Made by a program: the position numbers and the translations under genes. Below the pieces are notes generated by a model. The model was not told where the DNA came from and did no database searches. It saw only the letters and a list, made by a program, of their open reading frames with translations. From assembly GCA_013265495.1 (NCBI GenBank), contig MU057560.1, forward strand, positions 1,562,753 through 1,626,752: DNA of 64,000 bases, in the 5' to 3' direction. Shown in pieces: positions 4,401-50,079 of the stretch. How positions within the stretch are numbered: the first letter of the stretch is position 1; each line of letters begins with the position of its first letter. The DNA is from Vicugna vicugna. Taxonomy: Eukaryota.

Positions 4401-6029
4401 GTGTCACACATCCCACTGCTCATCCGGGCAGGGGTGATGGGCATGGTGGGGTGGAGGACACGTGGAAGGAAACATGATGTTTTTCAGGAACCCCTGGGGC
4501 AGGCGTGGGAGAGGCGGCCTTTAATATAAACCCTTGTTTGCTTCCTTCCTCCAGTTTCCCTGTTTCTCTTTCCTCATTAATTCCAGGTGTCGGCTTCATT
4601 CTCTTTACCTCAGGAATGTCTTTCTGGGAGAGAATAAAATTAGTGTGCAAGTGATCCTAGCTTGTGCTTGCCAAAGCCTTAAACCTCAGAGATGGAGAAA
4701 TGTACACAAAATTCTAGAAAAGCATGCGGACTCAGCTCTCCCACTTTCCATCAAGCTCAAAAGAGATGCTCTTGACGGGCGGGGAGGACAGGAGACAAGA
4801 CACCACAGAGCACTTGGGTCCCAGACCTAGAACTGCTCTCATCCGTGCTCCCTAGGAGGCAGCGGGACCCCCGGCAGGAGAATGTCTCAGGTTCACTCTG
4901 AGATTCTGTGACCTCACAACAGTTTTAGTGCCCCATTCCTAGCACAGGAGCGAGAGAAACTTGGAGGCTCAAAGACAGACTTACAGCAGCTGACAGCTGG
5001 GGGACAGTGAGAACCATCTCAGCTTGAACCTGTGTGCGCTGATCCCCGAGGACCAGAGAAGCCGCTGCCTTGTCCCTGCAGGAGACATCGGGGCAGTGGG
5101 AACACAACGGGGGTGTGTCACGGGCCCAGTGGAACGGGGGCGTGGGGCCTGCAAGTAGTGACCAGTAGGAAGCACTCACGGCTGTTTACACGCCGGTTTA
5201 CACGCATGACGCCGATGGAAGCCCCACTTCAGGGAACGGGTTGAATCAGTTAACATGTTCGAGAAGCCTTCTGGGTTTTGAGGTGGCCCCCATCCTGCAT
5301 GAGATGAGGCGAAAACGACTTAAAGACCCTTCGTGGATAAAAACGGCTCACCACAAGCCTTAGTTGAAGCGAGTCTGCCTGCCTCTTCGTTAGGAAAATT
5401 TGTCCGTTTTACAGTTCGCATCTGACACCAGATTCATGCAGGCTCCCACATCACAGCTTTTCTAGGTGAAGAATGCATCTGACAAAGTCTGGATGGGCTG
5501 AGCAAGTTCGTAAAGAACCAGCTCCCTTGTCTCGAAACCCTCTCCGTCCTTCAAGGTGTCTGGGCCACCCCGGCCAGGCTCCTTCCTGCCTCAGCTCCCG
5601 CGTGATAGTCTCTCCGCTCCCCCTGCACCTTCCTGAGCATCTGCGTCTATTGCTGACTCAGCCGGGCTCGGCCTGTGTGCGTCTCCCTGTGGAGACCTTG
5701 GCTCCCCCAGGGCACAGCTTGTTTTTCTGTCATGTCTAGAGGCTGGGGCAGCGACTCCACCAAAGAGATGACTGAATAAACCGTAATTTCTCAGATGCAA
5801 AAGCACAAAAGTGAGCTTGGCGCCAGAACCGCCTGCCTTTGAAAAGTCACGTCCCCAGTGTTCTTCTCTCTCTGCTTATCTCCCCTCCCTTCCCCCACAA
5901 TCGCTGCCCGCCCTTGCCTCCCGCATACAGGTAAACTCATTGAAAAACTGTTCGCAGTCAGAATCAAAGCCTGACCCCCGGCAGAGCTCGGTGGAAGCCC
6001 CCTGATCTCCCTGCGGAAGCGCGTGGTCT

Positions 6030-6265
6030 GCCTGCCGCAGGAGGGCCGGGCCATCAGGCAAGTCTGCGCTCAGAACCCATCGCGCCGCGTACCAGGGCAG
6101 GACTTTTAGCGAGCTGTCCAACTTCCTGACGCCACGCCCTCATCTGCAGAGCAAGTGCTCGGGATCATGACGACCCCGGGGGTTCCTGCGCATCGGGGAG
6201 ACCCCGCGCAGGCAGAGCTGGGCTACAGGCTGGCCCCCCGGAGCCCCTCCGGGCGGCGGCGCCCC
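6030..6265 (+). mobile_element. MIR SINE, heavily GC-shifted
   Basis: Colinear MIR landmarks: tcaggcaagtctgcgctcagaaccc (box B region), gccctcatctgcagagc (core cctcatctgtaaaatg), gggctacaggctggccccccgg (tail cacagtgcctggcacatag). Confidence 0.6.
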
Positions 6266-6630
6266 TCCGCGCGCTCTCTCCCGAGGCCAGCGCCCCGCGC
6301 CCGCGGCTGGCGGACGGACGGGGCGTGCAGCCAGGGCCCTCCCTGCCCCTGCCCCCCTCCAGGAGGCTCTCCGCGCGGCCGGGCGGCGCAGTCAGAGGGC
6401 AGTGGCCCTGGGGCTCCACGGCCCTTCGCCCACGCAGCTCTGCCACCACGGGTGGAAGGAGCAAAGCGGGCCACGGCCACCAGCGCCCACCTGCAGCGCC
6501 CGCGACCTGCCCCCAGGCCCGCGCGGAGCCGGGACCAGGCGCAGCGCGGCCTCCGCGAGCGGCGAGTGGAGCGAAGCCTTCAGCAAACGCCGCAGGAGCT
6601 CACCAGTTCAGTTTCGCGCAGCTACGCCGA
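6150..6630. other. CpG/GC peak 1 (CpG-island-like)
   Basis: Abrupt very GC-rich, CpG-dense block; AT-richer sequence resumes by ~6650. Confidence 0.85.
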
Positions 6631-8093
6631 CACTGAGCTCCATTCTGTTTTCTTTACGAATGGGGCAAAGCCCCTCCAGAGGTAGTAAATCAAGTTCAGT
6701 CATTTAGTTACCAAGTCCTTCCCCATGAAACTCCAAGTCAGCGGTTGAAACGACCAGCCTCTTCAAAATAATTAACAGCAGACATCCGGATTCACTAGTT
6801 ACTGAGCCGTTCACAGCCTCAGAAGCCTTCTGTGGGTAACCGAGCCCGCGTTCAAAAAGGAAAGGAGTGTTTTTCAGTTTCTTTTAAACAGAAGCTTATC
6901 GTCCATGAACATGAAACACAAATGTCCAACAAAAATTTACTTTTTTTATTTCACCAAGTTAATGTCAACACATGTTATTAATTTTTGCTACCAAGCCAGT
7001 CTTAGTGGGGAGTCTGGAAGCGCGGCCAACCGGAGTTTAACGAGCTGCTGGCTGTTCAACGGCGCACGTACCACAGGGAGGCCAGATGGACCATTCGGTT
7101 GCACCCTCCGCATGCTTTTCTGGAACGTGGAGAGGCTCCCCCCCATCGCTGGCACACCTCTCGATGTCCGTAAAGTCTTCTCTTTCTAAGTCCTCGCAAT
7201 GCGTCTTCATGATTCTCCAAGACCAGCGTCAGCGCTGCTCACAGTCTGGGAACATGAGCCCCCGGCAGCTGAAGCTCCTGCACCACGCCTTCCGTTTTCT
7301 TTCAAAGAACAACAGTATCAGTAACACTCTTGTTTTAGCTCCTGTAGGAGCTGGGAAGCCAGTCCACTGTCCAGTGAGAACATTTCCATGAGGTGGGGCA
7401 GCCAGGCTTGCTTTATTTTTATCTGAAGTGCTAAATCCGTTTCAATCTGTAAACTCTGTAGACACCTGGCTTCTCGATGAGATCGCCTTAGAATTGTAAT
7501 GGCTTCTTAACCATTCTCCTTTTAAAATGCAGGAAATATACACCTCTCTGGGCAAAGGCACACCTCCTTTAAATAACGGAACGGCTACAGGATCCCAGTT
7601 TCTCATGATGGTGATTTTTTAAATAAATAAATGAGTGAGTGAACAAAGTGGCCTTTGACAACTGGCAAGTGCACATGGCATTGATTTCATTCAACAAGCA
7701 GTAACGTGCAGAGCTCGCACCACGTGTGTGGGGATTCAGTGTCTCCGATGGTCACGCAAAAGGGACAAGCAGTGAGTCTCAGGCCACGACCTCCAGTCTC
7801 TAAGAACAACCGTCCAGAGAGAGGAGGCCGTGTGCGAGGGTGAGAGTAGCAGGTGGTACGTCGCGTGTCCTGCAAACCTTCGGTTTCGTGGGCGCGCTTC
7901 CCGGCGCCACCAGAGCATCTGCATTCCTTTATCTTTATACTGACACTTTGCTCAAAAGCTGCATGTTCTCTTTCTTTTTGCTTCCACCGAGCTTCTTAAA
8001 GGGAGGCTTCCTGTCTTATTCATCTATACATCTACATCTTTGGAACTTCAGCAAAGTGGCTGGTTCAAAGTGTGTGGTTTTACATACTTACAA

Positions 8094-14927: not shown

Positions 14928-15699
14928 AAGAGCAATATTACTACCAACAAGAAACTCACTGCATGAAGCTACGTATTTCTTCCCCTCCTCCTCTCTTCCT
15001 CCTTCTCCTCCTCTTCTCCAGAATACTCCCCTAGAGTGTACAATCCAGGCACAGTGTCAAAATTTACTCAATACACTATGTTCTTTGCATGATGATACAC
15101 ATATTTGCGATTTTAGGGGTTTTTTTCTTTTTGATTGAATTTTTCTAACATACACAAAATGTTTACATTTTCCTTATCCTGGGTCCCTGGAGAAGCCATC
15201 CATAGAGAGACAGAGGGACTTGAAACTTAGACCACTGTGCTGTCCCACCTGGACCCTGGAAAGGCGCCCGGGCCTCAGGGAAGAACTGGACAGGCCGCTC
15301 CGGGAGACCTGCAAGACGGCACGTCCTCTGTTTAATGTCCCTGCATCACCCTCTGCTGGTGCAGCTTCGTATTGTGACAGCAGGCAGAGGACACGCGGAC
15401 ACGTGTGCAGGGCCCAGCTCCGTTCTCACGGAGGAGGGGCTGACGGCTAACGTAGGCCACGAGAGACAGTGAATGAACAACCAGCTGACCCACAGCTCTC
15501 CCCACAGCCCTGCTCTGGTGGCCACCTCTTCCCCCGTCGCCCAGTAGGGGAAACACAGTCCCGCGTCCAGGTTCTTCGCAGAAATCTTGCCAGTCCTGGG
15601 AACGCAGCACCTTCGGTTGCTCTGTGACCTCAGTTCTCTGAAGGGTGCAAAAAGCTGCTGGGATTTTGTAGGCGACCTGGCTCGGCCTCACCACGTGCT

Positions 15700-16275
15700 T
15701 GGCAGTGGCGTTCTTCCGCGCTTCCCCACCTGCAGCGGAAGCAGGCGCGAGTGCCCGTGGCTCAAGAGCTGGGTGACGCAGAGCGTTTACAGCACAGGGG
15801 ACGTGGGCACGGTCGTGCCCTGGTGGGAATACACGTTTGTGGAGCCATTCTGACAAGAAACCTTGCAATACTTGGTCAAGTTACAAGTAAGCACAGCCTG
15901 ATACGGAGCAGAACTTTTCATGGGTCTATGCGCAACTGAATTCTCAAGCAGATCCAAAACGGGCTTTTTCAAAGATGTCCATCACACTGTTGTTTGTGGT
16001 GGTGAAGAACCAGGGCCAGTCTTGCATCTGAACTGGCGGGGGTCGGGGGGTACGTGGTGGGGGTGCCCCATGGCACCCTCCGCAGCAGCTCAGGAGAGCA
16101 GGTCAGATGTACTTAGTAACGTGACACTTACATAAATTAAAAATAATGCAGATAAACCAACAATGCAGGCTTTGCAAAAATAGGTATGAACAAAAGGATA
16201 TGTATTAACACATTAGAAAGATTGCCTGTGGGAGCAGAGGAAATGGAATCGGGGAATGAGAAATACGCAGAAATA
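15700..16275 (+). mobile_element. Ancient L1ME-like fragment (5' part CpG-enriched)
   Basis: ctggtgggaatacacgtttgtggagccattctgacaagaaaccttgcaatac; aagatgtccatcacactgttgtttgtggtgg. Confidence 0.6.
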
Positions 16276-21013: not shown

Positions 21014-22879
21014 AGAAAATAACTGATGCCTGGAAATGTAAAAATTGTTACAAAAATCTACTCTCCCTCCTGCAGCTTCCAGGAGCCCAGCCCTCAACAT
21101 TTATATCTCATGGTGATTTTGCGAGGTTTCCTATTCCTCCAAGGTTCCTTGACTGTTTGGTTTTGTTGTCTTCATGAGCCAGGCGTTGTGTGGAGAGATT
21201 CCTCTTCACAGTCTGCATATTCCAAGTAGCTTGATGGTGGCCTACTAACCTTGAAGCTTCTGCCAGGGATCTTGGGCTCCCTCCAAGAATCAGAGGTCTC
21301 TTGCCTTTAATCAAGTTTCTGTGTGGCTTCTTTGTGTGTGTGTTTACGTGTGGTTGCCAAGTGTTATTGCCGCCCTGAACTTCAGACCCACTGCTTCTCT
21401 GCTTTGTGGCCAGGGCCTGGGCTCCAACAGCCACACCTCTCCTTGGCTCCATCCAGCTCCGTCCTTGGTGCAAACAGCAAGTACCAGAAGGGGATGGCGT
21501 GGGGTGGGGAGGGGCGAGACATGAATCCTGCCCACTTCTGCATATTCTGAAGATGTACCAGCAACAAGTCCACAGACGTCAGGGTTGCCATTCTGTGGGT
21601 TCTTCTGAGCTCCAGAGGTTGTCACACTAAGTGCCCAGCTCCTCTCTCTTGGAGCTCTGCTCTCGGCGCCCCTGAACCCTCCCTGAGGATCTGTGTTCTA
21701 ATAATTACAACCTCTTTCCTTTGTTCCCTGAGCTCTGAGGGTAGCACCTCCTTCCACAGCTGCTACTCTGTGATGCCTTACTGCTGTCTTCCTGCCGTTA
21801 CAATTCTGAAATTTCAGGCTAGAAATTCTTTGTGTTAAATGGTTCTGTTTAAATAACTGATATTCTCCGATCCATATGCCAAGTACAGAAAATGTATGCA
21901 ATATTAGCAAAAATTATAAAGCAGCATACCACCTGAGGACAGCTGTTATTCATATTTTAACCTCTTTCTCCCAACATTTTCTACAGATAAATATTGTTTG
22001 AGGCTGGTGTTCATTCTTAAGGCTACATAAATAAAAGCAAGTGTCTGTTTTTCTGTTACATCATTCAAAAAAATCTTGGACAGATGTTCACCAAATTAGA
22101 GAGGTCCCCGTAGGAGGTTTTATTAACGCATTTGGTCACATGCTTTATTCTGAAGTTTACTGGGAGACCTGGGGAGGCAACTCAAAGGTGCAGGCAACAC
22201 ATCCTAACCGACATTGAGATTCCGGGAGGGTCAGTGTGGCATTAATTAGGGGCACCATGTATGGAACAAAGCAACAAACAGAAGCGAGACAAAGCTGAGC
22301 TTCAGGCACTCCTGGCTGCAGACGTGACGCGTCTCACCTGAGCCCTTGTACGCGGTGCTTCGGGCCTGAGTCTCAGCCGGAGCTGAATTACTGAAGGAGG
22401 TGTCGTGACTGGACGGGCACCCCCAGCGACGCCGGCCAGGTGTGTGTGGAGGCTCGGACTTGTGTCAGGTGCTCTCCACGTCACCGCACGTGTCAGCGGA
22501 GGCCTCTGAGATGCAGACGCCAGCCGGGACGAGCGGTACCAGCACTCTGGCAGGCACACCGCTCCTAAGGACGCGGCGGGAGGGAGGCGGACACCGTGGG
22601 AGAAGTCGCGATGCAGCGCTGACCCCTGCGCCAGCAGGAGGGGCAGCGCACCGGCTGAGGAGGGCCCTCGGCTCCCGCGCAGTGGTGAGGCCATCTCGGC
22701 CCGGCTCCTGAGGAGCCTCTGAGTAAAGCCAGATTTTTAAAGTCAGGACATACGTAAAGCCTGGCCTATTACCCGTGCCGGATCAGCATCAGTTCGAGTC
22801 TAAATGAGTTAGGAAGCAGCCCACCAAACGAGCGCAGATCTTCCCAGGGAAAATAATCTCCCTTCTGACCACGAGCACG

Positions 22880-23340
22880 TGCTTGTTGGTGAAAATCAGA
22901 CACAAAAAACGTGCAAAGGAAAAACTGACACTGCAGACCCAACCACCCTTAACAGTCGTGCGTGTTGCCCAGGGAGCTCGGCTGCCCGTCTCCCGCTGCT
23001 TCCCGCACACGCGCTGCCCCCGCGCCTCGCCGTCAGGGCCGCCCTGCCGCGTCTGCGCCGCGCACACGCCCCAGCACACGCCTGCGCTCCGGCTCTTCCG
23101 CCGCAAGCGCTCCGCCGGAAAGGCCTGCACGTGAGCCGCCCGCGCGCCGCAGGCCCCCCGGGGGGCGGGCGAGCCTGCTGAGGCCGCTCGCCCGGCAGGA
23201 ACATGCGCATCTGCGGCACAAAGCACTTCCTCCCGTGCGCACAAGGGCCGCCCAGATCTCACAGCTGCCTCCGTTTCCGCCCCGCCCTTCCCTCGTCAGC
23301 ACCCGGCCCCTTCTCCCGGTGTTTCTCGGCGTTCTCGCCA
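22880..23340. other. CpG/GC peak 2, overlapping a probable antisense L1ME 3' fragment
   Basis: CpG-dense 22960-23330; left edge gtgcttgttggtgaaaatcagacacaaaaaacgtgcaaaggaaaaac...cccaaccaccc resembles the L1ME antisense 3' end. Confidence 0.75.
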
Positions 23341-24072
23341 CTTTGTTATACAGAACAGTTGGTTCTTCCTTAGCTGATACCCCATAATTCAGATGTCCAA
23401 CCCATCCTGACAAACCAAGTGCCCGTGATTTAATAATGCGTGCGCTCTTCGGAAGGCAAGTGGCAGATCCAGGCGCACACCCCGCTAATTCCAAGCCACT
23501 CTAAATTATTTTTTTCTTAAGCTACCTGAACTCTCCCCCAGAGGAGTGTCTTATTGTTAAATAGACTGATAAATAGATAAAATTGTCTCATCTTAGCAAA
23601 AAAAATCCACTTCCGTATCCCAATGTACACATTTTTCACTCTCTTATTTCATGTAAAATACACTGAAAATACTATTCCCAGTCAATATAGTTGGTGATAC
23701 TTTTTGTGAAAATACTATTAATTCCTTTAAGAAGTCCAGTAGGAAAGGGCATGTTATGTACACGTATGTCTTACATAATTGTCTTAGAAAATCTCTAAGG
23801 AATATATGCTTGGGGATATTTGCACACTTAGATTTTTTAATATGCTAAATTCCTAGATTTGGAATGTCTACAGATGTTTTATTAATTTATCTTCTTGTCA
23901 ACAGAATTAAAGTAAGCTGTCCTTCTCACTCCAAAATCAACCTGGGATAGTCTTTATACTTTGACCTCCCGTATAAATATTAAAATGTTACTTTCAAGAA
24001 CAAAAAATAATATGTTCATATTTTTATTGTAATACTACTAAATGTATATATAATTTTGGTGAAAATCCTTAT

Positions 24073-25810: not shown

Positions 25811-27129
25811 TTAAAATTATTCATTGTGTTTTTCAAATCTTCTACAGCTGTACAAATATTTTTGTCTGCCTGAAAGTTTAATAATTAAAAGCATATTTCA
25901 TGTGCTCTGTCATTACTGAGGGTTTATCAACCGTTCAACAATTCTGTTGCCTTTTATTTATTTATTTTGAGACAGTTTTAAGGTGCACAAACATTTTACG
26001 TTCTGTAACCATTTAGCAATCCAGCCACACCATACCCATATTTCCAGTTTCCAAGACTGTCACTTAACAAACATTTTTAACCCAGTTAAGTCTATTATTA
26101 TCGAAAGCGTATCCTCTAAGCCTGTAGTATTACTTATTTTTCTTTTAAGTGCACATAATCTGATTTTAATGTATCCATGCAGGTTTTTTTTAATTGGATA
26201 GTGTTCAACTGGTATGTGTTCAGCTTGATTCACAGAGAAGTTTATCTTATCTTTAATTTGGGCTCCATCTTCCATCTTTGTGCTTATTTTTGGTCTTTTA
26301 GTATTTCATCTCTAATTTCCATGTTTTTCAAACAGAAAGGTGTTCTGAAGTCTGAACTTACCATAGACTGTTGACCTGAACTTGAACATCACTGTAAAGA
26401 GAATCCACTTCCACTGGATTCTTAACAGCTACATATTCTTGCTAATTTCTCTCACATGTAAGTGCATCACACCTCATACTGTGCCTAATGAAATGAATGT
26501 ATGAGAGTGGCCAGCTTTACCTCTTTTCTGTCTTTCTCTGTTTTTCTGTCTTGCTTTACTTCTATTCTAAGCATATTGATAACATGTCAGATTTATTTCT
26601 GTATTCCAGAGGTTTATTCAATAATAGTGATAAATTCTTTGATTTTGCCTACATATTCATTTTTAAAGTTCAGAGGTTTTTGTGGGTATGTGTCTATATG
26701 TACATCTATAGAAGTGTGCATATATTAGCATATATTAGAATTATATTTTAACAGATATTAACATATTCTATAGGTACTCTCTCTCATGCACACACATATT
26801 TCTTAATTATTTTCCCCAATGTATGATTGTGTGCACCCCAACTTGAGCACTGCATCTTAGGCGATGCGGGCCTGGTTCCCCTCCCAGAACAACGTTGTCT
26901 AGTGTGTGTCAATAAACTATTTCAATCATATACTTCAAATCTTTGGTTCCCTTCCTTCCTTCCTTCCATTTTTCTTCAACCTAAAATCTATTGGGCATCT
27001 TCTGTTTTTCAGGCTTTACCCTGAAGACAGACAAAATTTCACCTTTCTCTTGTTTCTGGGAGGCAAGCTGTGAGTAATGCCAAGCCTCCTTCCCAAAGAG
27101 GACCGAGGGAGGAGGACCCCTGTAGGCAC

Positions 27130-27500
27130 CACGTCACACCGCGCTGTGAAGCCGGCTGGCGCGCTGCTCACCGCAGTGCAGGGGCAGGGCTCTCCCGCGG
27201 GGCACCGGCGCCGCGGGGGCCCGCACGGCCGCGCAGAGCGGGGCAGGGGCCCCCCAGGCCCGCGCCAGCCCGCGCATGTGCCCGGAAGCCCGGCCCCGCC
27301 TGCGGACGGGGTGGGCCGGGCAGCTAGAGCGCGGGTGGGCGGACGTCGCTGCTGACCGTCAGCAGTAAACGCTTCAGGCTCGGGAGTCAGCAGCGATGTC
27401 CGCTGCACCGGCTCAGCCCCGCCGCCCAGCGTGCGCGCAGACCCGCGGGTCCGCGGGTCCGCACTGTCGTCCCCTCTGCGGAGCTGGGGGGCCCTGAAGA
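27130..27500. other. CpG/GC peak 3; right half is a GC-shifted MIR (+ strand, ~27355-27495)
   Basis: ggctcgggagtcagcag (MIR ggctctggagtcagacag) and cccctctgcggagctgggg (MIR cctcatctgtaaaatgggg) in correct order and spacing. Confidence 0.8.
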
Positions 27501-28569
27501 ACCACTGGTGTGCAATCAGCAGTCCCGGGTGATAAAAGATGTTACCCCTGGATTTCTGTCTCCTCTCTTCCATTTTTAAATAATTTATTTATCTCATTCC
27601 AAACTGTTATACAAGTGAACGTAGACTCAGGCCTCCACTGATGAGTCACTTGATGCTGTAGCAAGGCGCCCGCAGGCATGTGAACACATCTGAGGACACT
27701 CAGGGTGGGTTTTCATTAGAAGGATAACATTCGAAGAAAATATGGGCCTGCTCCTACACTTACAAAATACCAGCGTTTTCTGTAATTGGAATAAAAATGA
27801 TGAAATACAAGGCGCTGCCTTCAAGGTGCAGCAGAGACTAGAAAAATGACAAATCCTGGCTTTATATTGTATTATACCTATTCCCAATTCTTTTCCTTTC
27901 CAGTTTTATTATGTTGATTTATATAAATGTATCAAATTTGGATAACCCTTAGAAATGCTAATCTAATCAGCCTTGATTCCTTTGATATGCAGAAGACCTT
28001 ATTAATCATAGCAAACTAATTGTGTTACTTTACCTATCTAACGCCTTCTGTGGAGTTTACAGTGTATCCTAGAATTAATTAACTCAGCTACTGTTCCAGC
28101 AATTTAGCCAGCTTCTTGTGCAGGTCATTATGCTTAACATTTTAATAGTTCACAGTAAATTATCCACCTCTTCAGTTTGCCAAACACATTTAATGAAATT
28201 GGAAAGTTGGAGTTTATAAAACTTTCTGCAGTTTTTCTCTTAACATTAGCAAACTAGAGGTTTTATTATAAATGGTACAAACTACAGAAAGTTAAAGCAC
28301 AAGTGTTCAAGAACAATATTCACCAAACATGCATTTAATTAAAGTGAGTGGGAAATAAGTATACCGTATGGTATTTTTTTAAGCATCAATTGAAAAATCT
28401 CAATATCTTCAAAACAAAGTGAATAAGATGATAAGCTATTGGGTTCTACTTAAATAAGGAAAACGACATTTACTTTCTAAATACTCTTTTTGTCTTTTAT
28501 GACAGCACTAAGTATAACCGAGCATGATAAATGGATTTGAGGAGACTTTGAGGGAAATCTTAAAAATCA

Positions 28570-32859: not shown

Positions 32860-34050
32860 AAAGGAAGGACAGTGTGGCTGAAGAGGGAGGACTGAGACAA
32901 CGTCAGAGGAAGAGGGGGGCCATTTAGGATGTCACTGGCCACCAGAAGGACTTCGGATTTCATTTTACTCTTAGCACCGTATGAAGCCATTGGAAAAGCT
33001 TAAGTAAAAATTGAATATGATTTACTTGTTTAAAGAGTCCCTCCCACTACAGGGGTGAGCATGAATGCAGTAGGAGTATCCTGGAAGCAGATAAGGACGA
33101 AATCCACTTGAAAGTTGCAAAAGAGGCAGAATATATGGAAGGATGTGGTATGTATTTGAAAGAAAAGAAGAACTTAGTGATGGATCAGATGTAAACGGGG
33201 AGGAACAAGAGAAAAAATTTCAATGTGCCAAGAAAAAAAACCCACAATAACTGGCAAAGGAATTCGGATTTTTTCCCCTTGAGTTGGGACTGGATGCCTC
33301 CTGCTCTGAGACACATGGAGAGGAGTGGACACTAGAAAAGGACCAGAACCCTGAATGCAAGGAGAGACAAAGGGAACGGGGTTAGGTACGCGACCAGCAG
33401 GATCTGCTATGAAGTGTTTAAGAAATACGAGCTCCTATTATTCTTCAAGCTGCTATGCTGCTTTGGTAGCCCTGAAAAATCGAGAATTTAACAAAATTCT
33501 CTTTAAACTCCCATTGGAATTCCTATTCTTCAGAATAACAATTTTCATTTGGTGTCAGTCCATGGAAGAGAGGAATGCTCACATTCTCTTACAGAAGAGT
33601 CCTGAGTCTGATGCTGCGTTGTCATGTGTCCTCTGTCAGATCATCTACTGTCTCATTGGTAAAATGTATGGGTTCAATAGGCTCTAATTTTCTTCTAATT
33701 ATAACATATAACTAGAATATATTCTAATATCTTTCTACTTAAAAATATTCTGTGATTAAATGTCTGTTGAGTTAATGGAGTCAGTTAAAATGCATGATGC
33801 CAAGAATTTTGGACTGAGCAATGAGATGAATGGATGATGGTACAATTTACTGACAGGAAAGGCTGAGAGATGGACATGTACAGGGTGGGAACATAGAAGG
33901 CTCTGACCTGGATACTGTTTGAGGTTCCCAGTGGGCATCCCTAGGGGATTCCAAGTAGAGGTGGAGGGTGGACAATTACACAGGAGGATCTGGAGCTCAG
34001 GGAGATCTAGGTTAAAAATGCACATTTTAGAATTTTCAGCTTGTAGATAA
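32860..34050 (-). mobile_element. L2 fragments (32860-33250 and 33770-34050)
   Basis: cagtgtggctgaagagggag; aaggacttcggatttcattttac...gaagccattgga; gatgccaagaattttggactgagcaa; ggatctggagctcagggagatctagg. Confidence 0.65.
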
Positions 34051-35384
34051 TATAGTGAACCATTTGTGTATTCTTAAGTAAAATAATTGTATAAGGTTAT
34101 ATGCAAATATAAATCAGGAAAATTGTAGCAACTCAGTTTATTCACAGTGGGAAGGAGGAAAGAATAACAGAAATGTCTCCAAAAGTACAATAATCAAAAA
34201 CAATGGTATATCTATGCAGCGAAATCTTATGCAACCATTTAAAGCAATAGAAGCGTCTGTAATAAATAGAGGAGATGGTTATGTTACAGTATTAAGTAAA
34301 AAACATAGGTATACACAGTTCGAATTCAGTTATAAAATTGAAAAAAGTTTTTTAAAGACTAGAAAAAATAGTAACAAAATAAGTTATCTTTTCATGATGG
34401 AAACATGAGTGAATAAGACAAAAATTCTCTATATGCTTTTATTTTTCAAGGTATGTTATACTGATCATTTGTTAATTTTGTATCATCAAATGACTATAAA
34501 AAAAAAAAAGAAAAAGACAGCTTCTGGTTACCTGTTATAAACAGCTAGAGATGAGTTACTAACAGCCTGGCTTTGGCGACGGCTGAGGGAAAGCAGGAAG
34601 ACAAATTGAACACCTCCTGAGAAAAATTTAATAAACAGAAGACTGCAGATGGGTGGCATCGATTGTGTTTTATTGAAATGAGGTTTCCAGAGCCCAGCCG
34701 GCCGCCGTGTAGTCAGATGCATCTTCACTTCAGTGTTAATAAATATTTGACTTCTCCACCCTGAACGCTGCTCCGGCGTTCTGCCTGCATCATCGACCCC
34801 GCAGGCACACGGAGGCCCCTGACCTTTCCCATTGATTGCTTCTTGTGTCTCTCGGCCACACTGGCCCTGAAGCCATCCCCATTTCTTTTCCTTAAAAAAA
34901 TGTACTCAATTTAAATCAATAATGCACATGTGATCATTCTGAAAGACTCTCATGAAAAGATTCATTGATTAAAGGAATTTTAGAGACTCATTCTTTTCTG
35001 ATGTTTTGAAGGAAATTTAAACTAACATGTATAGAGGAAGAACGCAGTCTCCATGCAGGATGCAGCAAACATGGAAGGAAACAAAAGAGAGAACAAGTTG
35101 AATTGTCACATCTGAGAAACCATCTCTGTAGTCGAGCATGTTGTGAGCTCGGGGTAATAATCTCTTGCTCATGTGTGTTTTATGAGGATTTAATGAATTA
35201 TATGAAAAAATGTATCGTATGGTCTGTCTATAGATGTTCAGCTGGTGAAGGTTACTTCTCCTTCACCTCCATACTTTTCAGTTCCTTCTTCCTCACCCTT
35301 CTCCCCTCCTCTAGAAAGTTAAAAAACGAAGGAGATGCCAGAATTCTGATCTCACCTCCTCTATTTTAATTTTGCATCTTAGAT

Positions 35385-35750: not shown

Positions 35751-36431
35751 GCTGCCGGTGATGCTCCCTTTACTTCCACATTTATTTCACGTCTGGGCAG
35801 CATGTGAGCCGTTCCTCTTTCAACACGGAAGATGATGGGAAACAATGGGATCCGTTGAAGGAACAAGGGAGAAAACTAGGTGTCAACAGACAAGGCCAAG
35901 GTGGGGAGAGCTTTTCCCCTACTTGGGGTCTTCAGGAGGTCCTTCCCTTCCTCGGGGTGCTGGCACCACAGCCCCCGGGCCGCCTCGCGGCTCTGCAGTG
36001 TGGCCGGGGCCCTCACTTTCTGCTTCTCGGGAGACAAGCCAGATGGCCAAGAACATAGTGACTTCCACCAGCGTGTGGCAAAAAAACTTCAAAGACTTTC
36101 TCCCGGATACAAGACAGGTGACTCTAAACTGAAGGGAGACCCGGGGCGCCGGCACTGCCCCGTGGCCGGGGACTGTTACTCAGTGTTACAGAAACTGTGC
36201 GCGTGTGCGCGCTGTGTCCTGGCCGTGACCACAGCGCTCACTGACATGGGTGACGAAACGCTGGAGCCCCGAGGCCCGTGGGGCACAGAGCGCCCTCCAC
36301 GAAGCCCGCAGCCTCTGCACAATGAGCGGAGACGGCGCCGGTGCTGCGGGACACCCCCCCCACCACCACCACCACCGCACGCTTGTTGAGCATATTTCCG
36401 AAGAGCAGCATGGATTCAAAAGTTTACCTAC

Positions 36432-36558
36432 GGGGGGATGGGTATAGCTCGGAGGTAGAGGGTGTGCTAAGGAGGCACTAGGTCCTGGGTTCGATCCCCA
36501 GCACCCCCATTAACATAAATGAATAAATACATAATAACCTAATTACCTCTTCCCCCAA
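36432..36558 (+). mobile_element. Camelid tRNA-derived SINE (Vic-1 type) with 12-bp TSD
   Basis: gggtatagctc...gtagag...ggtcctgggttcgatccccagcacc...aacctaattacctc; TSD aaaagtttacct at 36418-36429 and 36559-36570. Confidence 0.9.
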
Positions 36559-36994
36559 AAAAGTTTACCTGTTAAGAAAAATAACTGGCCCACATTAGGC
36601 TGGGTTTGGCTTCCTACTTCATGAATTAAGTGACAAACAAGTTAGTGACAGATACAGAGTTTTGGACAACATGATTTGACTGCAGACCACTGTAACCCTA
36701 GAGAGGACTCAGAAAACAGGTCATTTTCCTACGAGCCTGTTCACTTGCACCCCAGCCAGCTAGTGCGTAAAGCACGGTGTGCAGACTCACAAAGGACTTA
36801 CGGGCATCGGAAAAACCTTTCAGAAAGAATGGGGCCAGTTATAAAGTATAATGCAAAGGCTGACGTACTCCAGAGGCTAAAAAGGTGTGAAAACAATGAA
36901 TTAGTTACGAAAGATGAGGACAAAAATTCCAGAGCACCCCCACCTCGGCCCATCGTTTTCCTTCAGGAAGTGGATGTATGAGCTAACTGAGCTT

Positions 36995-37508: not shown

Positions 37509-39359
37509 ATTAAAATTAATTTAAATGAAATACTCTACAGGAAAGTCAGATTGGGGGGAAAATCAACTATGTTTAAAAAGTGGGCAAATGCAAAGGGACA
37601 TACTATGTGAATGTGACTGGTTTATGAAGCAGAAGCAGCAATATTATTGAAAAGCAAAGTAAGTTTTCGGGTAAAGCAGTAAATGATTAAAACAGAATCA
37701 TTTAAATGATGAAAGGTAAATTTAAAAAGAAACTCCTATGAACATTTATATTCTGTTCAATTTTATTTAGAAATACTTAAAGCAAAGTTCCTTTTTGGGG
37801 GGAAGCTCAAGGGCATGCCAGTGGAAGCTCAGCAGCAGTACCAGATACTGCCAAGCGCTTTCCATCCCGGAAAAATCAAAACGACAAAACAAATGGGATT
37901 TTAATCATTATAAAGATTGTTCACATTTGTGTATATTTGTATCTGAAGCCTAAAAGCAAAGAACACAATTTCCTTTCAAGCTGAGTGGAATACAGGAATG
38001 ATACTTTAAGAAGGAGTGTTTAAAATCTCATTCAGTTCATCTAGAACGAATCACCAGGACTTAGCTGCTATTCTATGGCCAGCAGGTTCAAAGGGCAGTG
38101 AGCAAACAGCCTCTCACATGGTAACAGTCCCATCATTAAAAATGTCTCTATTCTTTTTCATGAAGAAATTTTCCCTTTGTTTCTTCCTTTCCCAGATGAC
38201 AGCTGTTTGGAATTAGAAGGCTCACAAATCCTTTATGCAAAAGAATTTCAAGGTGCTTTCTACCCTGCCCACTGCCAAGGGCCCATGTAGGGGCCCAGCT
38301 GTGAATAAAGCGAGATTTGACTGTTGAACCTTTACTCCCCCTGGTCTCTCACAGTTGATTGAATAAGTATTTATTCTGCACTGACTGTGTACCAGGCCCT
38401 AGATTTGCCAGGGCATATCGGCGCGAGTAATAAAGATTTCATATCAATTAAGTTATCATGGAAATTTTGAAAAAGTTATGAAGAAAAAGAACCGAATGCC
38501 AACAGGGACCATCTGATCTTCAAAAACCACAGGCACCAGAGTGAAGCTGAGCAGCAGAGCATCCGAGATAGGGAATTTCCACGCCATCCTACCAAAGGGT
38601 TAGCCAGCGTCTAGGAGACGAGTTTCCCCCGTGTTCACCACTGAAATACCAAGGCCTGCTTTTCCAGACTGAGGTGAGGAACAAATGCAGCCACATGAGC
38701 TACCACCTGGCACATAGTGTTCGCTCTCTAAATGTTCGTAAGTTGATGGTGGACAAACACGCTCCCAGGCTTGGAAGCCAGACAGATGGGGTTCAGAACT
38801 TGCTTTATGATGATTTTACTTCTTTGTCTCTATTCTGTAAAATGGGGATAAAAATATTAATTTGAGCCATGTGAAACGAGACGTTTGACTGCTGTTTGAG
38901 TTACAACAAAACTGCACACAGTTCCACTGTCACCACCCGCGAGGAGCTAAGAGCAGTTGACGACAAAACCTGTGAAGACACAGCCTGGATTCTGGCACAG
39001 AGCCCGTGCCGAACGTTGACAGGTGTCCCTTCTTTTATATCCAAACATGTGAATTGTTTACATAAAAAATGGACATTCAGAAATCTGTGCTCTTTTTCCT
39101 TGCTCTCAAGCGCCGAGAGGCAGTCTGGAGGAAGCAGGACTCAGACTCGGAGTGAGCGTGAGTCGGGGAGGCTGGCTGAGCCCCAGGCGTGAGCCCAGCC
39201 GTCCGGTGCGTCCAGGATGCCCTGGCATCTCAGAAAGTCAGCTAAGGATTTGTCTCACGTCTGCCCTGGGAGGCAGGTCTGACTCAGGAAAACAGACAGA
39301 TGAGCTCTGGATTCTAGCAGTGTGTGGCTGACCTCCACCTTCAGCTCTGGGGCGGGAAG

Positions 39360-39790
39360 GGAATGTGTGAGCGCGCGGGTTCCCTCGGCTCTGGTCTCGC
39401 TAAGCGGGCGCCAGCCCGGATGCGGGGCCTCGCCCACCAACACCGGGGCTGCGTGCAGCCGCGCTGCCCGGGGGCTCGGGTGGGCACGTCAGACCGCCTG
39501 GCGGCCCGTGGTTGACGGCAGGTGGAAGGCGGGCCTGCCGAAGTCTGAGCACGAGTGGACGCTGAGACAGAGCTACACTTGCCGGAACGCGGCAGGAAGC
39601 GCAGGGGCGCGCACCATCGGCGCGCTGGGCGCCAGCCGCCCCGCCTCGGCGCCGGCGCCCGGGAGCAGCGCATGCGGACGGCCAGGGCGCGACCGCGGCC
39701 GTGAACCGGCCCGGCCCCGTTCCCACGAGGCCTGGGGACGTGCATCGGTCCGGGGTGTCCCCAGTATCTGCCTCCTCCACGTCCGCCTGA
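39360..39790. promoter_or_regulatory. CpG/GC peak 4, possible promoter
   Basis: CpG-dense; NRF1-like gcgcatgcg at 39668-39676; nearby GC box 40055-40062. Confidence 0.5.
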
Positions 39791-41919
39791 GATCACCTTG
39801 CAGGATCTTCTTTGGAATTTTGTTTTATATACAAGACAGAGCAATGCAGACGTCAGTTCGGTGTTGCCGATTGCACCTACAGCTGTTTTCTTACAACAGC
39901 CCACGGAGAGCTTACACCCACCTGGAAATTTGCACGTCCGAGCTGCTCGTTTCCCAGAACGCACACACGCCGCGCTGCTGCAGCCCACCCCTTACCTGCA
40001 TTTTACAAGCCAGCCTGGCGGCCCCTCGGAGCCCAGTGAGCAGCTGGGACAGGCCCCCGCCCAGCACCGGCCTGATGTTTCATCTTCCTCGTAGGAACAT
40101 TAAACACCGGACCGGTTTTTTAAATTCCCATTTCATTTCACACAACTCCGAGATTTCCTCCATTTGGGGAAATGATCCGTCTCCTCTTTCAGAACTGAGA
40201 CTCTGTGAGTTTGCTCCATCCTGCAGTCTAATAACCAAGGAAAAGGGGGAAAGAGGTTCTGAGTGTCGAGGACGAACCTCAAAGCATGTTTCCAAAAAGT
40301 CAGAAGACTGTTAATATAGTGCCTGAAGCATAGCGCTTTTAACTGTCTTTACCCTGGAAAAATTGGAAATTCCAAATATTCTCTCACAAGAAGGCTTTTA
40401 ACTTGTTCTTCTGCTATGTGCTACAGAAGTCGTTAAAAGAAGTCTGGAAAAAATTTTTATCATATAAGAAAAAATTCATTAGGCAAAGATAAGTGAACAT
40501 GATGGATTAAGACATTTATAAGTTTGATTCCTGAAAGGTTAAATAAATGCACACATAAACAGAAGAAGAAAATTCCATTTTCTAACAAATTACTAACAGT
40601 GGGTTTCAAGTGGTTTTTATTCTCTGCGCTACAATCTTTCTATATTTCTACATGTGTTGAGTACTATTTATAATGAAGAAAAATATTGTAAGGCAAAAAA
40701 ATACAGTCCTATTTGTAATACCCGATTTTAAATTCAAAAGTGCCTTTAGGAAACATTTCATATAAATACATACGCTTTCCAAAATAGTTTTAGTGGTTTC
40801 TAAGGAAAGATATAAGAATAATATAACACCATCAGTGTTAACTGGTAGGAAATCAGTGGGTGAAGAACAGCACATGCCTTGAAAGTGGAAGTTGAACATT
40901 TTTTTAGTTTTTCACTCTGCACCATAATCATTTCTTCACATTTTTCGCACAGTAATTAAGGCCCAAGGGCAAGGCATTTCTTAGCAGCTAGTGACTATCA
41001 GGGTTAACTGCCGGGGTGAGACTTTCCTTCGTTGCTTAATTATATTAAATCAATTTAGTTTCCATTTTTCGCATAGCAGAAGTGCCTTTTAGTGAACCAG
41101 TTTAACACGATTCTGAACACTTGCTTGTAAAATGAATGACTATATACTCTATTCTATTAGCATCTTTTATAACATCAGAGATAATCATATGTCAAAAATA
41201 CTAGGTTATAAAGAAAGCAGCAAATATTTTAAGACATATTTAAATGAGAATTAATACTTACTGATAAAATACTAGTTAATAGGAGAAAAAAGCCACCATA
41301 TAGAAAGACTGAAAGGAAAAAGAAAAAAATCAAACCTAATGTGACCTGAGGTGCAAGGCAGAGAAAAGGGTCACAGTGGAGTTTGCCTCACGAAATAGAT
41401 GCCTTGTTCTTGCACAGAAGCATCAAGTTGGGAGGCAGAAAGAGGGACACAACCACGTTTTCCTTTGTATGATTACACTGCCAATTACAACAGCAGGAGA
41501 GAGGGAAGTCTGGTGTGACATTTAATTTTAATATCATCTTTCACTCACTTGCAGTGTGACCACACCAAAGCAGCTGGAATCTTTTAGTCCCCATTTCCCC
41601 CAGGTAACCACCTGTGCTTGTATGAACTCCATCCAGGATGGCAGAAAGGATCATCTCACATAACTCTTGCCCCGGCCAGAGCCCCTGCGAGCACTGGGGC
41701 AAGAAGAGCCAAGAAACTGAAGCATGGTCTCCATGGGGCAGCACCGTTCTGATTAAGAGGCACTCAGCCTCAGGTGTGCAAAGGAAGAGTGCGACCAGGG
41801 AGCCACCCAGTGTCCAACTCCAGATGATTCTTTCTAAGTCCCTGAAAGCACTGTGTACTTTACCCACTTTTTATGATGTGCTGAATGATCAGCTCCACGC
41901 AGTAAAGTTTAAAAGCCTG

Positions 41920-44449: not shown

Positions 44450-45120
44450 ATTCAAAAAAATATCTTTGAGTGCCAATTATGTGCCAGGTTCTGAATTCTC
44501 TAGAAACTCTAAGATAAGGATGAAATCAGCTCAGCCTTAAGGAGTTTAAAATTTATTGAAGGAAGCACATCGGCATTATAAATAGGTGGGCAAGTTGCTG
44601 TGGGAACCAGGAGGAGGAGACTTTGCCACCAAAGAAGTCTTCCTGGAGGGAAGGTGACATGTAAGATGAATCCTGAAGTCTGAACAGTGTTTAGTCAGGG
44701 GTGGGGGGGGCATGTATGAGATTGGGGGTGAGGCTTAAGCCTAGGAGCTTGCAAAGTAGGGAGTTCCAGGGCATGAGCACAGTATTTGCAAAACACCAAA
44801 TATAAGAGAAAGTGTAGATGATGCAGGGATATGTAAGTGGCATGAAACGTCAAAGTACAAAAGGGGTTGTTCAGAAATGAGACTGGAGAAGCAGCTATGA
44901 ATCAAATTGTGCAGAATCTTTACATCATGGTAAGGAGCTGGGACCACAGTCTGACTGCTGTGGACTGCAGCTTAAGGATTGCATATGGGGACTGCATTAC
45001 ACAGAGGTATTACTCCAGAAGCGCTAGTGAATGGACACTTTGGGAGAGTCCAGCTCAGAGCTCGCTGCTGTAATCCAGGCATCAGCTAGCTGGGTCTTTA
45101 ACTAAGGCTGTGAATGCATG
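44450..45120 (-). mobile_element. L2 (antisense, 3' part)
   Basis: ttgagtgccaattatgtgccagg; aagaagtcttcctggagggaaggtgacatgtaagatgaatcctgaag; gttccagggcatgagcacagtatttgcaaa. Confidence 0.75.
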
Positions 45121-46868: not shown

Positions 46869-47809
46869 GGAAGCCCGGTATCTTCTGCGCTTTGTGGGGT
46901 TAGAGATTTCTTAGGAAGTGTGCTCTGGAATCCAATGGGGACCCGGGTTCCAGGACCTTAATTACCTGGTTTTATTCTATGGCAGGCGCTCTCTTGTGTG
47001 TGAGAGCTTTGCTGCAGAGAACGGCGCTCAAAGAAATTCTCCCTCTTTGTCTACTAGGTCGTCTGCTAAGCCGCATCAGGCCTGTGACAGGATGAAGCCT
47101 GGCGTCTATTTTTAAGAGAGAAGGTCTTCCCTGGATGGGAGCAGCTGAGACACGCCTGCGGCACCCGCCTCTTATTAACGCATCAGGAAGGGATCCCGGC
47201 GTGGAAGCTGGCAGTGACGCGCGAGCGCGGGGAGGTTTGCTGAGCGAGTCTCACTGTCCACCAACTTCTGCTTCGGGGCAGAGTTAGAAGTTCGTGCCGC
47301 CATTTCAGCCCGCTTGCTTTAGAGGGGGGAGTATGAAGAAGACAGCTCCGACGTGATGTTCTGGAACCACTCAGGTTTGAATGAAATGAACGGAAGCTTG
47401 TTGGCAGAAGCCCTCACGTCTGGCGGACAGCTAGGGCTGAGCTCTGCTTTTTGAGGTGGGTGTGTGAGCATTTAGCTTGGACTGAGGCGCCACAATACAC
47501 GTCATCTCCCTGGGATGTCCGCGCAAACGCAGTCTGTACAAATCCCTGACCAAAGGTTCCCAGGCCCTTGGTCCGCTAGAAGAGTCAGCTGCGGAATCTG
47601 CTCCTGTTCATTCTCGAGCACAGTCTAAAACGCCTCACTCTAACCCAGCCTGGGGCGTGCTGGTCTGGAGGCGCCTGGCACACGGACAGCACGGTTGCGA
47701 CGGCCGCTGGCGGTAAGTCTTCAGTCCGGGGCGAGGTCCGCCCTGGAGAGCAAACGTAGGCACGCACATTCAGCGTCAGAGGGTGTTTCCAGAAGTGGGG
47801 CTGAGAAAA

Positions 47810-48360
47810 TGAGGACAGAGCGGTAAGCGCTGAGCCTCGTGTCCTCCTTGAGGACAGAAGAAGAGAAGGGACCGAGCGGGAGCAGCTGCTCGACACGTGG
47901 CAGAAGCTGCCAGTGAGGAGCCTGGGGAACCTGGCGCCGACGGTGTCCAGGGAACCAAGGAGGAGGCCCGGGGACGAGGCCGCGGTCGGCCGCCCAGTGC
48001 TGCCGCCCAGACCAGGGCGGGAGAGGGCCGCGTGGGTGTCGCCACGGAGCGGCCACGTCGCTCTCCCCGCGGGTCTCGCTGGAAAGGAGAGCAGGGAAGG
48101 GGGCCGGGGCCGAAGGGGCTGCAGCGAGGGCCTCGTCTCGTTAGTTACGGCTGAGACTGTGTTCTTAAGCCGGGAGAAGTTACAGCCGTGTTTGTCGTGA
48201 TGGGAGCCACCCAGGAAAGAGGGGAGGAAAGAGGAAAAGCGGCAGCACGAACGGGACAGTCGGCTGCTGGAGGCTGTCCTGAGCAGGCTGGCGGGGCAGG
48301 CGCGGTGCCGGGAGGGGCGCAGGGCGCGAGGAGGCGGGGCGGGGACCGCGCGCAACAGCG
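47810..48360 (-). mobile_element. L2 fossil, heavily GC-shifted, inside peak 5
   Basis: gccagtgaggagcctggggaacctggcgccgacggtgtccagggaaccaagg and ttaagccgggagaagttacagccgtgtttgtcgtgatggg are colinear with L2 antisense landmarks. Confidence 0.7.
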
Positions 48361-49060
48361 GCCTTGCGCTCAAACGCGGAGCCTCCAGGACAGCCGCTGA
48401 CGCGCAAAGCGGGCCGCCGGGGACGGAGAGGAAGCGCGCCTCGTAGCGCCTCCTCGTTTGCCCGCATGACGAGGTAGCACAGAGCGGCCGCTCCCCGTGG
48501 ACTTCGGCCTCCGCCCCGTGGCAGCCCGCGCCCCGGACGAGGCCCCCGGCGGGGGCACAGTCGGCGGTGTCGCCTGACCCGCAGCCGCGGCTTCGCGGGC
48601 GCGGGGACGCGGCTCCGGTGCCGGCCCGGGGCCAGGAGCGCTGGCGCGCCTTCGACGCTCGTCTGAGGAAGCGGCTGTATTTCAAATGCTACATGCGTAT
48701 AAATGAAGCGCTCCGGCCCGTCCGAAGTCAGCCCTGGCACCGCCGCAGTTAAAGAAAACCACCGGGAATCGGGTATCAGCCGGGGAGCAGGCCGGCTGAC
48801 CGTTTCCCCAGCGTGCTTCGGACTGCACGGGGCAAGCGGGGAAGGTACCTCAGGGGCACGGCGGTTTGGGGGGCTTCCCCCGGCCAGGGGTGCAGCGGTT
48901 GTGGAGTCAGTGCCACGTCCCGAGGGGGAGGATGTCCCAAAGGCACGGCCAGGCCACCTGTCATCGCTGGCTGCTGGGTCCCAGCGCCCACAGCGTCCCT
49001 GGAGAGGCGCCCGTCATGTCCCGAGGAGCCCGGGGCTAGTGGCTGCGGGCAGCGCTCCGC

Positions 49061-49084
49061 TAACCCTAACCCTAACCCTGACCC
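49061..49084 (-). repeat. Short interstitial telomeric repeat (TTAGGG)3 plus TCAGGG variant
   Basis: + strand taaccctaaccctaaccctgaccc. Confidence 0.9.
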
Positions 49085-50079
49085 ACGTGTGAGCGCGGCC
49101 AGGCGGGAGGAGGCACCAGGGCCGCATGCTGTCAGGGAGGGAGTTAGGAGAGGCTCCCAGCGGGAGTTAGCACCACCAAACTCGGAATGCAGCCGGCGGA
49201 TGAGAGGAGGCACGGTGCCCAAGGGACCGATGGCCAGTTGTGACAACGACAGATGCCTGTGCTGGGACCCGGCCACACCCGGTGCCAGGCACCCCCGGCT
49301 TTGGGATCAATGGGCTGGACAGGCCTTCGGGCTGCACCGCTCACCCTCCAGGTGCACAGGGCCACCTGGGAACCAGTCCCAGTGCAGGTCTGAGCCCCAA
49401 GACTCATTTTCCACAAAGCACCGCACGCTCATCTTCCAACTCGCTCAGCAGAGACAAACTCAAGTGAAAATGTGGGCGTTTCTGGTCACTCCAGACTTAG
49501 CCATCTTTCTCTCGGTGACAGCACGGTGCTCTCCATCAGAGAAGTTTCCGTCCCAGTCGTGTTCAGGTTTCAGTCGAGACCCTGTCTTCCTCAGATGCGA
49601 GTGGGCGTGCGGTTTAGGAACGGGTCAGAAATTAATAAATTTACATACGTGTGTAATAGAAGACTAACACAGTCCGATGGAGTGTTAGCACACCACGCCT
49701 GGCGGTGTTCCTGCGCGACAGCGCTGAACACAAACAGTCGCCGAGATCACAATGGTTTATGGGCCAGATCTATCAAAGCTTTTAAAAACAGATTACTCTT
49801 CATATAAAATGCTGCATAGTATTAAAAAGAACAGAAACTTACCTTCAACTCACTTACTACATTAACACAATCCTTATATCAAAACTGGACAAGGGAAAAC
49901 TGCATGTGTGAATGTGGACATCATTTTTCCTACCTAGTGTGTGTGTCTCGCTGTGTAAATGTGTAACTGTGTAGCTGTGTATGATGACGCAGGCAACCTC
50001 ACTTCCCAACACTGAAGTAAAATGGAAACTAGCACAGTGCACGGCAGCATTTTAAAAGAATGAGGAGAGTCTCAACCAA

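Follow-up and report, generated by a model that had tools for sequence, protein, structure and literature searches.

Background

Two described systems come closest to the locus treated here. According to Berglund et al. (PMC4350167), dog islands show a fourfold excess of A/T to G/C (W>S) substitutions, and many new non-genic islands are reported to have been made by GC-biased gene conversion (gBGC). For mammals more widely, Joseph et al. (PMC11161765) describe PRDM9-independent hotspots as active in most of 52 species, some of them with an intact PRDM9. The supplements give hotspot B as 1.3-1.9 for the dog and 1.9-2.6 for the elephant seal, and the 4 supplementary files include Bos and Ovis but neither camel nor Vicugna. 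Camelid PRDM9 orthologues, as listed by Baker et al. (PMC5519329), have the KRAB-SSXRD-SET arrangement with all three catalytic tyrosines intact. No study of camelid gBGC was found among the papers listed in the literature searches.

The locus resembles the GC-peaks of dogs (PMC4350167) in that W>S changes are raised and CpGs are spared; many of the new dog islands lie away from genes. However, dogs are without PRDM9 whereas SSXRD and PR/SET exons free of stops lie clustered on one contig of the present genome, and our ancestor is a repeat profile rather than the outgroup genome of the dog study, so that the change is undated. In PMC11161765, GC* peaks at hypomethylated default hotspots, also in species whose PRDM9 is intact; here a similar B is found at a locus whose retained CpGs would point to hypomethylation, and that work deals with recent branches genome-wide whereas ours deals with one ancient repeat. 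Compared with typical L2 fossils, the copy described below represents the same collinear ORF2 RT region of a dispersed family but is GC- and CpG-rich and invisible to a neutral profile. The process is already known in dogs and other mammals, and the locus is most likely a clear further example of it.

Results and Discussion

The largest CpG island of the window and its L2 fossil

The window, i.e. the whole stretch of 64,000 nucleotides that was analysed, lies on a contig of 3.7 Mb within a mammalian assembly of 2.03 Gb. Its largest CpG island as called from sequence criteria (a length of 500 bp or more, a GC content of 55% or more and a CpG o/e of 0.65 or more) spans positions 47006-49250 without assigned strand (2245 bp, GC 0.65, 199 CpG, o/e 0.85). 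If island-like stretches from 500 bp upwards are counted, it ranks first among the 7 in the window and among the 42 in a total of 264 kb, in agreement with the sequence-only reading of this DNA, which had called it the largest. The island is single copy in the genome, and since the segment 46500-50500 is present in 20 DNA runs from 7 studies, an assembly artefact is ruled out; no RNA run was among those listed as containing this segment. The six further island-like peaks of the window lie at 5796-6745, 15256-15935, 22181-23475, 27016-27615, 35971-36525 and 39256-40170, and the L2 RT profile matched none of them when scored with the local-composition model described below.

The reference profile was taken from the genome itself. 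A degenerate RT motif had 102 genomic matches, its reversed control 3. Of 30 matches that were fetched from these 102, seven were removed (a duplicate and six that shared little identity with the others). The remaining 23 formed the first profile together with four further copies, which were taken from the flanks while the island was masked. Final column posteriors came from the 23 loci alone, and the island was never among the training sequences. As the training copies were selected via an intact motif, they are biased towards well-conserved elements. The translated profile shows L2-like reverse transcriptase motifs and we take the family behind it to be L2, a dispersed multi-copy family as judged from the RT motif counts and from those of the landmark motif discussed below (33 versus 0, the island itself included).

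The profile of 23 copies aligns antisense from 48042 to 47645 (minus strand, columns 442-882) in one collinear alignment, which extends from DLSAAFD to YADD of the ORF2 RT region and further downstream, at an identity of about 0.58 to the L2 ancestor. Two of the antisense landmarks proposed earlier, 47909-47960 and 47985-48030, both fall within this alignment. Its significance, on the other hand, is borne out by some models and not by others. Using nhmmer as a neutral search with our own shallow profile, L2 copies of the window at 32.9, 33.8 and 35.3 kb were matched but the island was unmatched at E<=10 and at E<=100; single-copy nhmmer seeds found themselves alone at useful E-values, and the neutral Forward score on the island was 0.3-1.0 bits. 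In contrast, scoring that tolerates A/T>G/C change gave 26.9-28.3 bits on the minus strand as compared to at most 4.4 bits in shuffles (100 per setting), a score that was unchanged with the selection motif masked, whereas the plus strand and the reversed sequence scored about -2 bits. Likewise, a freely fitted matrix with a flat start reached 37.0 bits versus at most 9.2 in 12 shuffles.

But could purine-rich, GC-rich DNA resemble L2 by chance? The lack of a significant match in the neutral models would agree with this, as would the behaviour of a fixed gBGC matrix scored against a window-wide background, which reached 37.7 bits elsewhere on windows of mixed composition and was therefore dropped for scanning. 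Because of these false positives the scan was redone with a direction-free model in which local composition sets the equilibrium. The false matches were then gone but the island was kept, at 12.4 bits versus at most -1.5 in 60 shuffles, and the 12 of 526 window-strand scores of at least 4 comprised 2 on the island and 10 on seven L2-like loci. Together with the correct strand, the collinearity over some 400 nt, the stability of the score under motif masking and the concurrence of an independent second profile, this makes a chance likeness, which is already largely refuted, exceedingly improbable. The antisense L2 fossil is real and well supported.

Extent of the fossil

Upstream of the RT region the first profile is thin, and on 48043-48400 it gave -0.4 bits, a score reached by 112 of 300 shuffles; moreover, the motif of a third proposed landmark was not found where the training loci would be expected to have it. 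This landmark is nevertheless supported for 48165-48186, which has 32 other copies in the genome versus 0 for a reversed control, 20 of the 32 reading AT where the island reads CC. When eight of these copies were fetched, the link to the RT profile was clear in two (12.5 and 7.3 bits, at a consistent column), weak in two and absent in four. A second profile, made from the eight copies with the motif masked, scored 9.9 bits on 48030-48700, a value that none of 150 local shuffles reached, although under that matrix neither side was significant by itself (10/150 and 6/150 shuffles). Its posterior is 0.77-0.96 across 48150-48299 and then drops where the profile is also weak. Taken with the collinear RT part, this indicates that the fossil extends over about 47645-48295, with 48150-48295 (minus strand) as its upstream continuation. 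The intervening stretch 48043-48149 (minus strand) is weakly aligned (posterior 0.36-0.42) and probably carries a deletion, as RT motif and landmark lie 183 nt apart in the island but 259-272 nt apart in three L2-like genomic matches, which suggests a loss of about 90 nt. These three were recognized by eye among 21 linker-pattern matches, 16 of which were rejected as deriving from an unrelated repeat. That repeat is probably a satellite and was seen mostly near the starts of short contigs (C868, C5372 and C6362, for example).

At the other end, the segment 47669-47710 had been interpreted as a MIR/L2 tail. On a profile of 27 tail copies the sense reading scored 2.7 bits, which 2 of 300 shuffles reached, whereas its reading as a continuation of the antisense L2 (minus strand, columns about 810-866) scored 5.1 bits, reached by none of 300, and raises the score of the main alignment by 3.9-4.4 bits, with a posterior of 0.94-0.99. 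Nor would an inserted element fit into the alignment spacing, which also counts for the antisense continuation, even though 47677-47697 is poorly aligned within it. The MIR-core and tail profiles, which have low power, gave nothing above 3.1 bits across 46.6-50.3 kb. The preference against a tail is modest; judging from these scores, the segment is more likely the antisense L2 continuing.

Of the island's 2245 bp, the firm alignment accounts for 398 bp (18%) and the fossil as a whole for about 650 bp (29%), with about 62 of the 199 CpGs. The earlier description of L2 as forming the left half of the island is thus overstated, the repeat lying left of centre.

Substitution pattern and its possible causes

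Changes relative to the L2 ancestor were counted on confidently aligned columns and compared with a leave-one-out pool of 19 of the 23 training copies, four split copies being omitted. W>S changes occur at 63 of 134 sites in the fossil versus 422 of 2537 in the pool (P 3e-15), and the reverse, S>W, at 10 of 122 versus 550 of 2222 (P 6e-6). The same holds outside CpG contexts (W>S 32/84 versus 302/1817, P 5e-6; S>W 6/75 versus 389/1512, P 2e-4). W>S transitions (2.5-fold) and transversions (3.5-fold) are both up, A<>T changes are unaltered (8/134 versus 151/2537), and S<>S (C<>G) changes are raised (11/122 versus 83/2222, P 0.008). The bias is patchy, with W>S at only 4 of 21 sites in 47831-47925 and 6 of 30 in 48162-48287. 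The aligned span 47645-48042 has a GC content of 0.68 and 35 CpGs (o/e 0.80), of which 21 can be traced: none lies on a consensus CG, 8 stem from TG or CA and 13 from other dinucleotides. None of the traced CpGs qualified as a decayed ancestral CpG, two or three being borderline. The bias outside CpG contexts and the absence of traced CpGs from consensus CG mean that the CpG richness of the L2 part is derived, and also that loss of methylation alone is insufficient to explain the pattern.

We consider the G/C rewriting of the L2 copy to be most likely a scar of gBGC at a long-lived hypomethylated hotspot, a reading that draws on the substitution pattern. A gBGC model is about 45 log-likelihood units better than a neutral one. 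What it constrains is the product of strength and duration, timing being left free: B would be about 2-2.5 for a bias that was always active and about 8 for one limited to 30% of the time. An attempt to date the change by means of younger SINE and L1 ends gave no significant result (P 0.33 and 0.32). According to this reading an ancient L2 copy, whose homology is evident, was inserted antisense and then decayed; the locus would have become, or come to adjoin, a patch that was hypomethylated in the germline, as the retained CpGs suggest, and this patch would long have been active as a PRDM9-independent recombination hotspot. G/C-favouring heteroduplex repair would there have driven A/T>G/C changes to fixation and held back those in the opposite direction, which would account for the observed bias, and absent methylation would have spared newly made CpGs, until the L2 copy was rewritten beyond recognition by neutral repeat models and was left as the present left-centre portion of the island.

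A local shift in mutation without fixation bias, by which an unmethylated patch would be hypermutable and largely free of deamination, fits nearly as well in one formulation. A two-parameter model in which C>T/G>A is reduced 17-fold and the overall rate raised 2.4-fold has a log-likelihood of -243.8 with its optimum near the grid edge, as compared to -240 to -244.9 for gBGC, and is within 2-4 units of the gBGC model. The raised S<>S changes agree with it; gBGC alone predicts them just through multiple hits, and they are a point against gBGC. However, methylation loss alone alters CpG contexts only, while in this model C>T outside CpG must drop as well (the 6/75 versus 389/1512 above), and the 2.4-fold rate would be needed even though A<>T changes are unchanged (8/134 versus 0.06). 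We regard the two-parameter model as contrived and such a shift as rather unlikely.

Two L1 3' ends at about 117.2 and 124.0 kb from the window start (L007 and L008) show W>S at 33/121 and 30/104 sites and S>W at 0/33 and 0/26, respectively, where mixing of subfamilies is possible.

The core of the island and the question of a promoter

The CpG-densest core of the island, 48331-48800 (no strand assigned), lies outside the fossil and has a GC content of 0.72 and 68 CpGs (o/e 1.11). None of our own repeat profiles, which are weak there, matched it, and it may be ancestral, making it the candidate nucleus of the island. A sequence of events in which an older unmethylated core drew recombination and thereby spread gBGC into the adjoining L2 fits equally well. 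Moreover, L2 predates the placental radiation, and an L2 copy underneath the island is therefore compatible with an old promoter. The proposal that the island is derived rather than an ancestral promoter consequently holds for the L2 part, with its 63 W>S changes and no ancestral CpG among those traced; for the island as a whole it is no more than a possibility.

Might the L2, then, have been co-opted by a GC- and CpG-rich promoter or enhancer which selection built or kept? Sequence elements of this kind are present, namely GC boxes at 48337 and 48511 and a TATAAA at 48698 in the core and further GC boxes inside the island at 47738, 47990, 48003 and 48015, and the retained CpGs and the single-copy nature of the island would agree as well. 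Yet the fossil has diverged more, not less, from the L2 ancestor, as seen from the identity given above, the bias spans non-CpG sites and both substitution types, and islands of this sort number 42 over 264 kb. Nor did a crude exon scan identify a neighbouring gene or exon: Pfam returned nothing relevant for four frames of the island and matched 0 of 16 candidate frames. We therefore think it improbable that selection accounts for the pattern, and prefer gBGC.

One exon-like open frame of 100 nt with good splice signals was seen at L004:5351-5450 on the minus strand, for which PDB, Pfam, Atlas and protein searches yielded no true relative; its single match, a repeat-rich protein that carries a laminin-G domain, was rejected as unrelated.

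Comparison with other L2 copies

The copies that had been cited as CpG-poor are indeed so, with a CpG o/e of 0.00 at 33770-34060 and of 0.13 at 44450-45110, and 15 of the 19 reference copies have a GC content of 0.35-0.48 and an o/e of at most 0.31, as opposed to 0.68 and 0.80 in the fossil. The shift is confined to the kilobase scale, since GC* is 0.41-0.49 in the L2 copies of the window at a distance of 3-15 kb: those at 32.9-35.8 kb have 0.41-0.48 and the one at 44.9 kb, which is weakly aligned (8.6 bits), about 0.49. Genome-wide, however, 3 of 19 L2 copies have a GC* above 0.6, and the copy in L044 (about 0.80), the one at +143.7 kb (0.78) and that in L022 (0.69) are shifted likewise, so that the island L2 represents the upper end of a spread and is not a unique case. 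In all, G/C-shifted L2 sequence (GC* about 0.61-0.80) was noticed at the L009/L010 junction (about 143.6-144.3 kb from the window start), in L017 (about -56.5 kb), L022, L026 and L044.

Possible implications for recombination in camelids

The genome contains a PRDM9/PRDM7-like locus at C4951:30966-33270, where an SSXRD match and two PR/SET matches follow in order, stop-free and within 2.3 kb. These stop-free exons, the 3 of 19 L2 copies with a GC* above 0.6 and the 42 islands in 264 kb are hints at a wider reading, namely that camelids, while apparently keeping PRDM9, run default hotspots of canid strength which make whole orphan islands, this core included, from old repeats and alter these repeats until neutral models overlook them. 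We consider this possible but doubtful. If it were true, the seemingly unique sequence of such islands would in part be unrecognised transposon DNA, and, if genome-wide in camelids, the lineage would provide a test for PRDM9-bearing mammals that still recombine at unmethylated islands.

For the locus itself, the ancestral L2 state is about 100 million years old, and so old an ancestor reveals that roughly half of the A/T sites have turned G/C at one place. That a CpG island is called from sequence does not by itself point to an old promoter, and repeat searches with neutral scoring can overlook fossils within such islands.

Further features of the window

Rfam searches returned 0 families. An ARAGORN prediction of tRNA-Leu at 36432-36560 was rejected as a copy of a tRNA-derived SINE, of which 8 copies occur in the DNA examined and which presumably belongs to a camelid family. 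Finally, a short telomere-like (CCCTAA)n run lies within the island at 49058-49085 and is the sole run of at least two exact units in 264 kb.
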